From IMG/VR virus record IMGVR_UViG_2534682338_000009, positions 1-12,048 of that record: 12,048 nucleotides of DNA; one strand, written 5' to 3'. Made by a program: the position numbers and the translations under genes. Source of the DNA: a virus (taxonomy: Duplodnaviria > Heunggongvirae > Uroviricota > Caudoviricetes). Positions 9,235 through 10,006 of this stretch are shown here, piece by piece. Under the pieces are notes generated by a model. The model was given only the letters and a program-made list of their open reading frames with translations. It was not told where the DNA came from and did no database searches. Position 1 is the stretch's first letter; each line of letters opens with the position of its first letter.

Positions 9235-9498
9235 TTATGGTTTTGGCTTGCGTAATTTCTTTGTTTTCGCTGCTTTAGTGATTAAATCAGTATATTTCTT
9301 GATACTCTTCTGTAGTTTCTCGTCTTCTGATAGTTCCTCTACAACGTCCTGTACGCCCCTTAGAATGCGTTCTACTTCTTCGGCGTCGCGTTGTACGTCT
9401 TCATGTACTCCATACTCTACGTAGCGTCTTAGGGCTTCAATATTGGGGATACTATAGCTTGCTACAACTCCATCAGTATGATGAATGTGTAGGTCCAA
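9235..9498 (-). CDS. Hypothetical small charged protein (87 aa, putative TTG start, basic C-terminal tail)
   Basis: ORF has no in-frame ATG; the only start is TTG at 9496-9498, preceded by GGTGG. The protein is helical and charged with a KKLRKPKP tail, and its codon usage resembles the head genes (GTA, CTA, GAA, CGC rich). The overlapping plus-strand ORF (9149-9424) translates to Ser/Thr/Cys-rich low-complexity sequence typical of the antisense of acidic coding DNA. Confidence 0.35.
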   Translation of the reverse strand: MDLHIHHTDGVVASYSIPNIEALRRYVEYGVHEDVQRDAEEVERILRGVQDVVEELSEDEKLQKSIKKYTDLITKAAKTKKLRKPKP

Positions 9499-10006
9499 GC
9501 CACCGTTGATATATGCAGTTGAAAACTTTTGGCATATAATTACCTATATAGAAAGCAAAAAAGAAATAAGTTATTAAAGTCCACACTGACCATTTTGAAA
9601 AAAGTGACTTTGATTTTTCTTGGAAAGTTTTTTTAAGACAACTATTTAGTAAGAATATTGATACAAATAAAATCAAGTTTATGATAAAGAATTTCCACTC
9701 CATCAATATATCACCCAATATTAGCATAGGAGCCATCATTCCAGTACTAATTACAGTAATATTATGAAATAAAGTATTCGAACTTCTATATGCATTTCTT
9801 AACAATATAAAAACTGCAATTATTATAATTGCATTCTGTACAAGGGTTAATACTAACGAATTGAAATCAATCCATATTAAACTTATGGGATATCCATAAT
9901 AAACAGAGTTACCGAGTTTATAAAATACATATGTCGCATATGACATAAATGTGATCAATGTTATTATTGATATGTTACTTTCTAGTTTGTATGGGCTATT
10001 TCGCAT
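9473..10006 (-). CDS. Hypothetical polytopic inner-membrane protein (about 5 predicted TM helices)
   Basis: 177-aa ORF with ATG at 10004-10006. Hydrophobic segments ISIITLITFMSYATYVF, LVLTLVQNAIIIIAVFILL, VISTGMMAPMLILGDILM, FFIINLILFVSIFLL and WSVWTLITYFFFAFYIG. Very AT-rich gene. No family recognised. Confidence 0.6.
   Translation of the reverse strand: MRNSPYKLESNISIITLITFMSYATYVFYKLGNSVYYGYPISLIWIDFNSLVLTLVQNAIIIIAVFILLRNAYRSSNTLFHNITVISTGMMAPMLILGDILMEWKFFIINLILFVSIFLLNSCLKKTFQEKSKSLFSKWSVWTLITYFFFAFYIGNYMPKVFNCIYQRWLGPTHSSY

Follow-up and report, generated by a model that had tools for sequence, protein, structure and literature searches.

Analysis of two overlapping open reading frames in an E. 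coli prophage indicated that their arrangement, a 26-nt overlap between a 177-aa membrane-protein ORF and an 87-aa ORF that lacks an ATG, is very probably the scar of a 932-bp deletion between 9-bp repeats in the accessory region of the prophage. As the alignments with related prophages read, the scar joins what is left of a membrane-protein gene to the 3′ part of another gene that has lost its beginning, and the two parts are out of frame. Throughout, the window denotes the whole 12,048-nt stretch of DNA that was analysed, and the coordinates of the features under discussion are collected in Table 1.

Table 1. Features at and around the deletion junction, in window coordinates.
Feature	Position	Strand	Basis
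177-aa ORF	10006..9473	-	ATG to TGA
87-aa ORF	9498..9235	-	TTG to TAA
First 163 codons of the 232-aa membrane-protein gene, ATG 10006-10004	9518..10006	-	Collinear with L001 6621-7319, 97.4% identical block
Deletion junction, single remaining copy of the 9-bp direct repeat TGCATATAT	9509..9517	-	L001 repeat pair and blastn overlap
11-codon out-of-frame tail QRWLGPTHSSY plus TGA of the truncated membrane ORF, read through the remnant of the other gene	9473..9508	-	Translation, alignment
3′ remnant of the 171-178-aa family gene (Ala96-equivalent onward plus C-terminal tail), no start codon or upstream region of its own	9235..9516	-	P0001, family alignment, HMMER survey
TTG, codon for the internal Leu102 in the family (Leu21 in the 107-aa form)	9496..9498	-	Alignment A1; Leu102 nearly invariant
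225-aa lipoprotein gene, upstream neighbour of the membrane gene	10132..10809	-	phrog_1353, E = 1.8e-66
Hairpin resembling a terminator, separating the 225-aa lipoprotein gene from the membrane gene	10093..10118	-	Consensus scan: 9-pair stem, then T-rich tail
125-aa gene with signal peptide, 3′ of the remnant, intact, collinear with L001	8538..8915	-	ORF list, blastn

Coordinates and codon reading agreed with a preliminary description of this DNA, which had reported a 26-nt overlap, a +1 frame relation and TTG 9498 as the sole start candidate for the 87-aa ORF. Read from the sequence, the overlap spans 9473-9498, with the 87-aa ORF in the +1 frame with respect to the 177-aa ORF. The closest upstream stop in the 87-aa frame, TAG 9546-9544 on the minus strand, lies within the membrane gene and fixes the upstream limit of the frame, and the 15 codons that separate this TAG from TTG 9498, V I I C Q K F S T A Y I N G G, include no ATG, GTG or TTG; the TTG figures as the ORF start only because no start-type codon comes earlier behind the stop. 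The 87-aa frame matched a protein family with E = 8.5e-47, and by this match it is a coding-derived sequence and not a chance ORF. Homology begins at GCA 9516-9514 (AYINGG), 5′ of TTG 9498, and the conserved sequence thus extends past the TTG. The GC content of the membrane part was 26.6% versus 41.8% for the remnant, which bears out the earlier remark that the 87-aa ORF lies beside a very AT-rich neighbour.

Comparison with undeleted relatives revealed the junction. The closest of these were the E. coli prophage loci L001-L003, with 97% identity on each side of the junction; L001-L005, the contigs encoding the 107-aa E. coli protein P0001, were fetched and aligned to the window. By blastn, window 11296..9509 matched L001 5335-7118 with 97.4% identity and window 9517..8524 matched L001 8042-9035 with 97% identity, and the left and right blocks overlapped each other by exactly 9 nt, corresponding to the repeat TGCATATAT. 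This 9-mer occurs twice in L001, at 7110-7118 and 8042-8050, 932 bp apart start to start, with 923 bp between the copies when the repeats are not counted; at the junction point L001-L003 carry 932 bp extra and the window 932 bp less. The left junction in L001 reads ...TTCAAC-TGCATATAT-GCAGGTG... and the right junction ...TTTTTG-TGCATATAT-CAACGGTGGC..., and the window, ...TTCAAC-TGCATATAT-CAACGGTGGC..., combines the left flank of the first with the right flank of the second. The starts of the membrane gene and the 125-aa gene lie 2023 bp apart in L001 but 1091 bp apart in carriers of the deletion, confirming a deletion size of 932 bp.

The 932-bp segment of L001 holds codons 167-232 of the membrane gene, the whole of a 112-aa gene, and the upstream region of the 107-aa ORF with its first 14 codons, ATG included, and TGCATATAT itself falls in codons 164-166 of the membrane gene and, in its second copy, in codons 14-17 of the 107-aa ORF. 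A loss of 932 bp (3 x 310 + 2) leaves a remainder of 2 when counted in codons, which puts the fused parts out of frame. Past the junction, the membrane ORF of the window continues with CIY, then QRWLGPTHSSY and then TGA 9475-9473, and this tail showed no family match when aligned with the 232-aa proteins. Counting the CIY of the junction repeat, 166 residues of the 232-aa protein are kept in the window.

The family of the remnant was small. A search with the 87-aa translation returned few matches, all near-identical proteins, of which the best was P0001, which consists of MQIEILNDNPLNFCAYINGG followed by the 87 residues; the remnant is 98% identical to its residues 21-107. A 171-aa query found eight clusters of 171-178-aa forms from E. 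coli and Shigella sonnei, each of which has the N-terminal domain, and an exhaustive profile search (HMMER) of 1.84 billion representatives found 11 clusters only. Three of the 11 were distant stand-alone proteins of 71-99 aa (P0042-P0044), which begin at the Met82 equivalent and keep the motif M.I.(I/V)(I/L)NNNP.N(F). A tblastn search of phages with the extended 87-aa frame gave only two chance Thermus phage matches (E ~1). Homologues with an upstream ATG-initiated N-terminus, which the preliminary description had proposed to look for, do exist, at 107 aa in L001 and at 171-178 aa in the wider family. Homologues complete with a TTG start, named there as counter-evidence, were found nowhere besides P0002 and P0003, both of them deletion alleles and the only family members that start at position 102; the others begin at Met1 or Met82. 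Counted on the 171-aa form, the remnant in the window has lost residues 1-95 (on the 107-aa form, residues 1-14), and most of the NNNP.NF motif and 14 of the 20 residues before Leu102 went with them.

A relative at another site suggested how the 107-aa form arose. In L006, a prophage at a different site, beside yegD, the gene is a 171-aa ORF whose residues 82-171 are the counterpart of the 107-aa protein, and the Met82 N-terminus with its upstream region is conserved in this prophage at 82% nucleotide identity. L001 7757-8000 is homologous to the coding sequence for residues 1-81 (L006 6515-6272), the alignment across L001 7757-8266 having 81.7% nucleotide identity, and in L001 this 81-codon N-terminal domain of the 171-aa gene carries three lesions that inactivate it, a TGA, a 1-nt insertion and a TAG; what is left is the Met82-start ORF. 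The family seems to shed its N-terminal domain repeatedly, since the distant stand-alone relatives begin at the same Met82 as the L001 ORF. In L032, a 113-aa homologue, 86% identical to the 112-aa protein, lies directly 5′ of an intact 172-aa gene with a 29-nt overlap, an order indicating that the ancestral module had the 112/113-aa gene followed by the 171/172-aa gene. The overlap between these ancestral genes is 26-29 nt (L001 7757-7782; L032 5001-5029), and they look like a genuine coupled pair; that the artefactual overlap in the window is also 26 nt long, like the natural one in L001, is a coincidence.

These family data bear on the first option of the preliminary description, in which the 87-aa ORF functions as a gene and coupling lets its translation start at TTG 9498, either through re-initiation 23 nt upstream after TGA 9475-9473 or through recruitment by GGTGG. 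We consider this very unlikely. The GGTGG resembles a Shine-Dalgarno (SD) element, with a predicted anti-SD duplex of -5.1 kcal/mol, but it stands 0-1 nt from the TTG, where a spacer of about 5-9 nt is needed, and in the family alignment it encodes the conserved Gly100-Gly101, so that GGTGG-C-TTG spells the conserved Gly-Gly-Leu of the family. The C-terminal domain does exist as a stand-alone protein in distant relatives, but all of these start 20 residues earlier and keep NNNP.NF. The frame is open in most carriers and an 87-aa gene is called in some assemblies; however, the changes seen among carriers are non-synonymous substitutions and a frameshift only, and the arrangement itself was born of an accidental deletion. 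The two ORFs share with coupled overlapping phage gene pairs their common strand and an overlap of tens of nucleotides, as does the overlapping ancestral 112/113-aa and 171/172-aa pair, but a real pair has a downstream ATG and a conserved overlap, whereas the window has neither and its overlap occurs in the deletion allele only.

A weaker version, in which the 87-aa frame is translated at a low level by re-initiation at TTG 9498 or by an accidental prfB-like +1 slip at GGTGG-CTT-G, appears highly improbable. If true, the product would be either the C-terminal domain on its own, in shortened form, or a fusion anchored in the membrane, and a chimeric prophage protein would have been newly born.

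We give almost no credence to the two ORFs being a single gene read by a programmed +1 frameshift in the overlap, for example at CTT-G 9499-9496, to produce a membrane anchor with a charged cytoplasmic tail, as the third option of the preliminary description had it. The 87-aa frame is indeed +1 relative to the membrane frame and an SD-like element lies directly 5′ of CTT in the overlap, a loosely prfB-like layout; in contrast to prfB, however, no in-frame stop or recognised pause codon follows the slip codon, the site shows no conservation, and the two frames derive from unrelated genes. By the rules of prfB, re-pairing of tRNA-Leu on UUG would be poor. The overlap CTTGGACCTACACATTCATCATACTGA, read for slippery or pause motifs, contained no X XXY YYZ heptamer and no CUU-UGA-type site. 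The halves belong to unrelated families; every undeleted relative encodes them apart, in two genes with a third one lying in between, and the fused product was found in no homologue.

The upstream partner belongs to a family of strikingly constant length, with over 15 clusters, each exactly 232 aa long, at 97-100% coverage and down to 54% identity, including clusters from Enterobacter kobei and E. ludwigii. The C-terminal 66 residues, well conserved across this family as the domain STNGSEALL.SCD..GNK.IKIKSIL..NDILVRNWF.SEC, are missing from the window. Length outliers were the 177-aa form, a frameshifted 155-aa form, and a 217-aa form in strain PSS-10 that is cut by an IS630-family element; in that strain the module (L007 5863-7371) is an isolated fragment between IS630- and IS3-family elements. 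The product of the 177-aa ORF would be a truncated membrane protein lacking the conserved, soluble C-terminal domain, with about five helices as suggested by hydropathy and a low-confidence model, and it is probably still made because the ATG and upstream region are kept.

The 87-, 107-, 171-, 232- and 112-aa proteins had no significant match in Pfam or PHROG, the Pfam matches being sub-threshold only, and PADLOC returned no match for the same five proteins; the N-terminus of the membrane protein gave a weak match to phrog_17164. A search of one genome per species found no relative of the 232-aa protein. AlphaFold2 models of the 171-aa and 232-aa proteins (pLDDT 41.7 and 43.3, respectively) were both too poor for use. 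The pairing of the 225-aa lipoprotein gene with the 232-aa membrane gene is kept even around the 54%-identical homologue (L030 1063-2512 and L026 2281-3939 being the loci compared), and in Enterobacter the membrane gene is preceded instead by a gene for a Tlde1-domain protein and a 91-aa gene. This context of lipoprotein, membrane protein and Tlde1 domain hints at a cell-envelope effector/immunity or exclusion module.

The comparison of lengths clearly points to the window as the derived, deleted state and to the longer form as ancestral, because homologues as distant as 54% identity keep the 232-aa length and the C-terminal domain, and members of the second family are 171-178 aa long or start at Met82. 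The ancestral order, which relatives retain, was the 225-aa lipoprotein gene, the 232-aa membrane gene, the 112-aa gene and the 171-178-aa family gene, with the last of these already cut, in the closest relative, to the 107-aa ORF starting at the internal Met82. The reverse polarity, in which the window is ancestral and L001-type loci gained about 0.9 kb of cargo with a 9-bp target-site duplication, is extremely improbable, and so is its variant in which the AT-rich membrane gene is cargo that clipped the 5′ end of its neighbour. Several transposable elements typically produce direct duplications of 9 bp, and the difference in GC content between the membrane gene and its neighbour (26.6% versus 41.8%) would fit such an origin. 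However, the extra segment completes two conserved ORFs in frame, one at each end, and holds a gene but neither a transposase nor terminal inverted repeats. Insertion is also at odds with homologues in other genera, which down to 54% identity keep the full 232 aa and the C-terminal domain, and with the conservation of the Met82 N-terminus and its upstream region in the prophage at a different attachment site. The membrane gene occupies the same place in undeleted relatives, and it is the window that has less DNA, not more. The second option of the preliminary description, that a cargo insertion removed the 5′ end of an older gene, was therefore correct in that a 5′ end was lost, the relatives being ATG-initiated, but the cause was a 932-bp deletion and not cargo; the AT-rich gene proposed as cargo is an old neighbour whose own 66-aa C-terminal domain was lost with the same deletion.

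Both the deletion and its polarity are shown by these comparisons, and from the scar we infer a repeat-mediated mechanism. In the proposed sequence of events, the two copies of TGCATATAT would have misaligned, with loss of one copy and all the DNA between them. RecA-independent slippage or template switching is the likely route, although the scar cannot tell these apart from each other or from other illegitimate recombination, and the 14-nt palindrome CTGCATATATGCAG, in which the left copy sits in L001, possibly helped. In its present state, the membrane ORF enters the other gene out of frame for 11 codons and ends at TGA 9475-9473, and the frame of the other gene is open back to a chance TAG in the membrane gene, with the codon for an internal leucine, TTG 9498, as its first start-type codon. 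The accidental TGA and this internal TTG together account for the apparent 26-nt overlap and the ATG-less 87-aa ORF.

Repeat-mediated deletions of this kind are textbook material. The classic E. coli lacI deletions are RecA-independent events between short direct repeats. As in the events seen in lacI and plasmid assays, the window keeps one copy of a repeat that flanks the segment on both sides in the relative, the repeats lie less than 1 kb apart, and the left copy lies in a palindrome. For direct repeats within a few kilobases of each other, RecA-independent deletion is well documented in E. coli, and such events are frequent at <1 kb (PMC7145654). The present case differs from those assays in being an allele that arose in nature and spread through a lineage of prophages, with the mechanism read from its scar.

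The deletion junction is a real inherited allele, because the same junction occurs in 18 independent assemblies. The loci L008-L025, reached through either the 87-aa or the 177-aa protein and drawn from assemblies of NCBI isolates, from ENA metagenomes and from Logan, contained the junction 30-mer without mismatch in 18 of 18 cases, and the exact 177-aa fusion protein was listed in 152 collection blocks. An assembly or sequencing artefact has a negligible probability: the junction does lie on a repeat, but one of only 9 bp, far under assembler k-mer sizes, and isolates and metagenomes processed by different pipelines gave the identical junction.

The remnant frame was open in 16 of the 18 carriers, and some gene callers call it as an 87-aa gene (P0002). 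Among the 18, two non-synonymous changes, G10E and S82L, and no synonymous changes were found in the remnant, too few events to measure selection. In L025 a 1-nt insertion leads to a stop at codon 16 of the remnant, which could be an error since this is a single read-set assembly, and in L019 (8490-8720) the junction is kept but the 3′ end of the remnant has been replaced by recombination with L006-type sequence. This variation fits neutrality, and the 87-aa remnant is probably a non-functional gene fragment. The 225-aa lipoprotein gene of L023 (7198-7875) carries the nonsense change Q30*.

The host was identified as E. coli by the flank mdoH-yceK-msyB, which is 99.7-100% identical to E. coli chromosomes, and the element as a prophage with a large serine recombinase adjoining msyB. 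Megablast of window 8100-12048 found no match in 50,697 phage records, and against 5,426 complete E. coli genomes it gave six partial matches, none across the junction; this prophage type is therefore absent from those 5,426 genomes. The structural genes are apparently complete in many deletion carriers, so the deletion alone is no mark of a dead prophage.

The window copy has further features of its own. Its left end (1-175) is 100% identical to the end of IS1414, of the IS256 family, and the protease/capsid ORF at 166-1602 (-) stops at this IS1414 end with 478 aa, compared with 618-620 aa in relatives, indicating that the major capsid gene is interrupted by the IS. The prophage copy in the window is probably defective. 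The longest large-terminase ORF, 3500-5422 (-), starts with TTG 5422 and overlaps the small-terminase gene, 5295-5864 (-), by 128 nt; in relatives the large terminase is called as 561, 575, 623 or 637 aa, so the true start is uncertain. A convergent gene at 6315-8135 (+), between the accessory genes and the small-terminase gene, encodes a 606-aa P2 Old-like defence nuclease with ATPase and TOPRIM domains (PADLOC Old E = 1.4e-74; Pfam AAA_15 and OLD-like_TOPRIM), and L001 has three unrelated small genes in its place. Just 3′ of the Old-like gene, in a spacer of 21-24% GC, the heptamer TACTCAT forms a perfect tandem repeat of 9.3 copies (8262-8326). A second perfect tandem repeat, 2.5 copies of the 14-nt GACTTTGGATAATT, is intergenic at 11184-11218 and may be a protein-binding site.

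The odd gene pair is thus an instance of ordinary prophage decay and not a new coding mechanism, and it raises no new biological question. Gene decay and pseudogenisation of prophages are known in enterobacterial genomes, for example in defective E. coli prophages. The truncated genes described here, in a prophage that is a mosaic and partly in decay, belong to the same pattern, as do the further frameshift or nonsense changes in the L001 N-terminal domain, L025 and L023 and the IS1414 in the capsid gene of the window, whereas the apparently complete structural genes of many deletion carriers set this case apart. In annotation, the pair should not stand as two overlapping genes: the 87-aa ORF is best labelled as the fragment of a gene, and the 177-aa ORF as a fusion allele of the 232-aa membrane protein with a truncated C-terminus. 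The locus is a clean natural case of a repeat-mediated deletion producing a misleading ORF pair, and for an odd overlap combined with a missing ATG, comparison with undeleted relatives is the best test.
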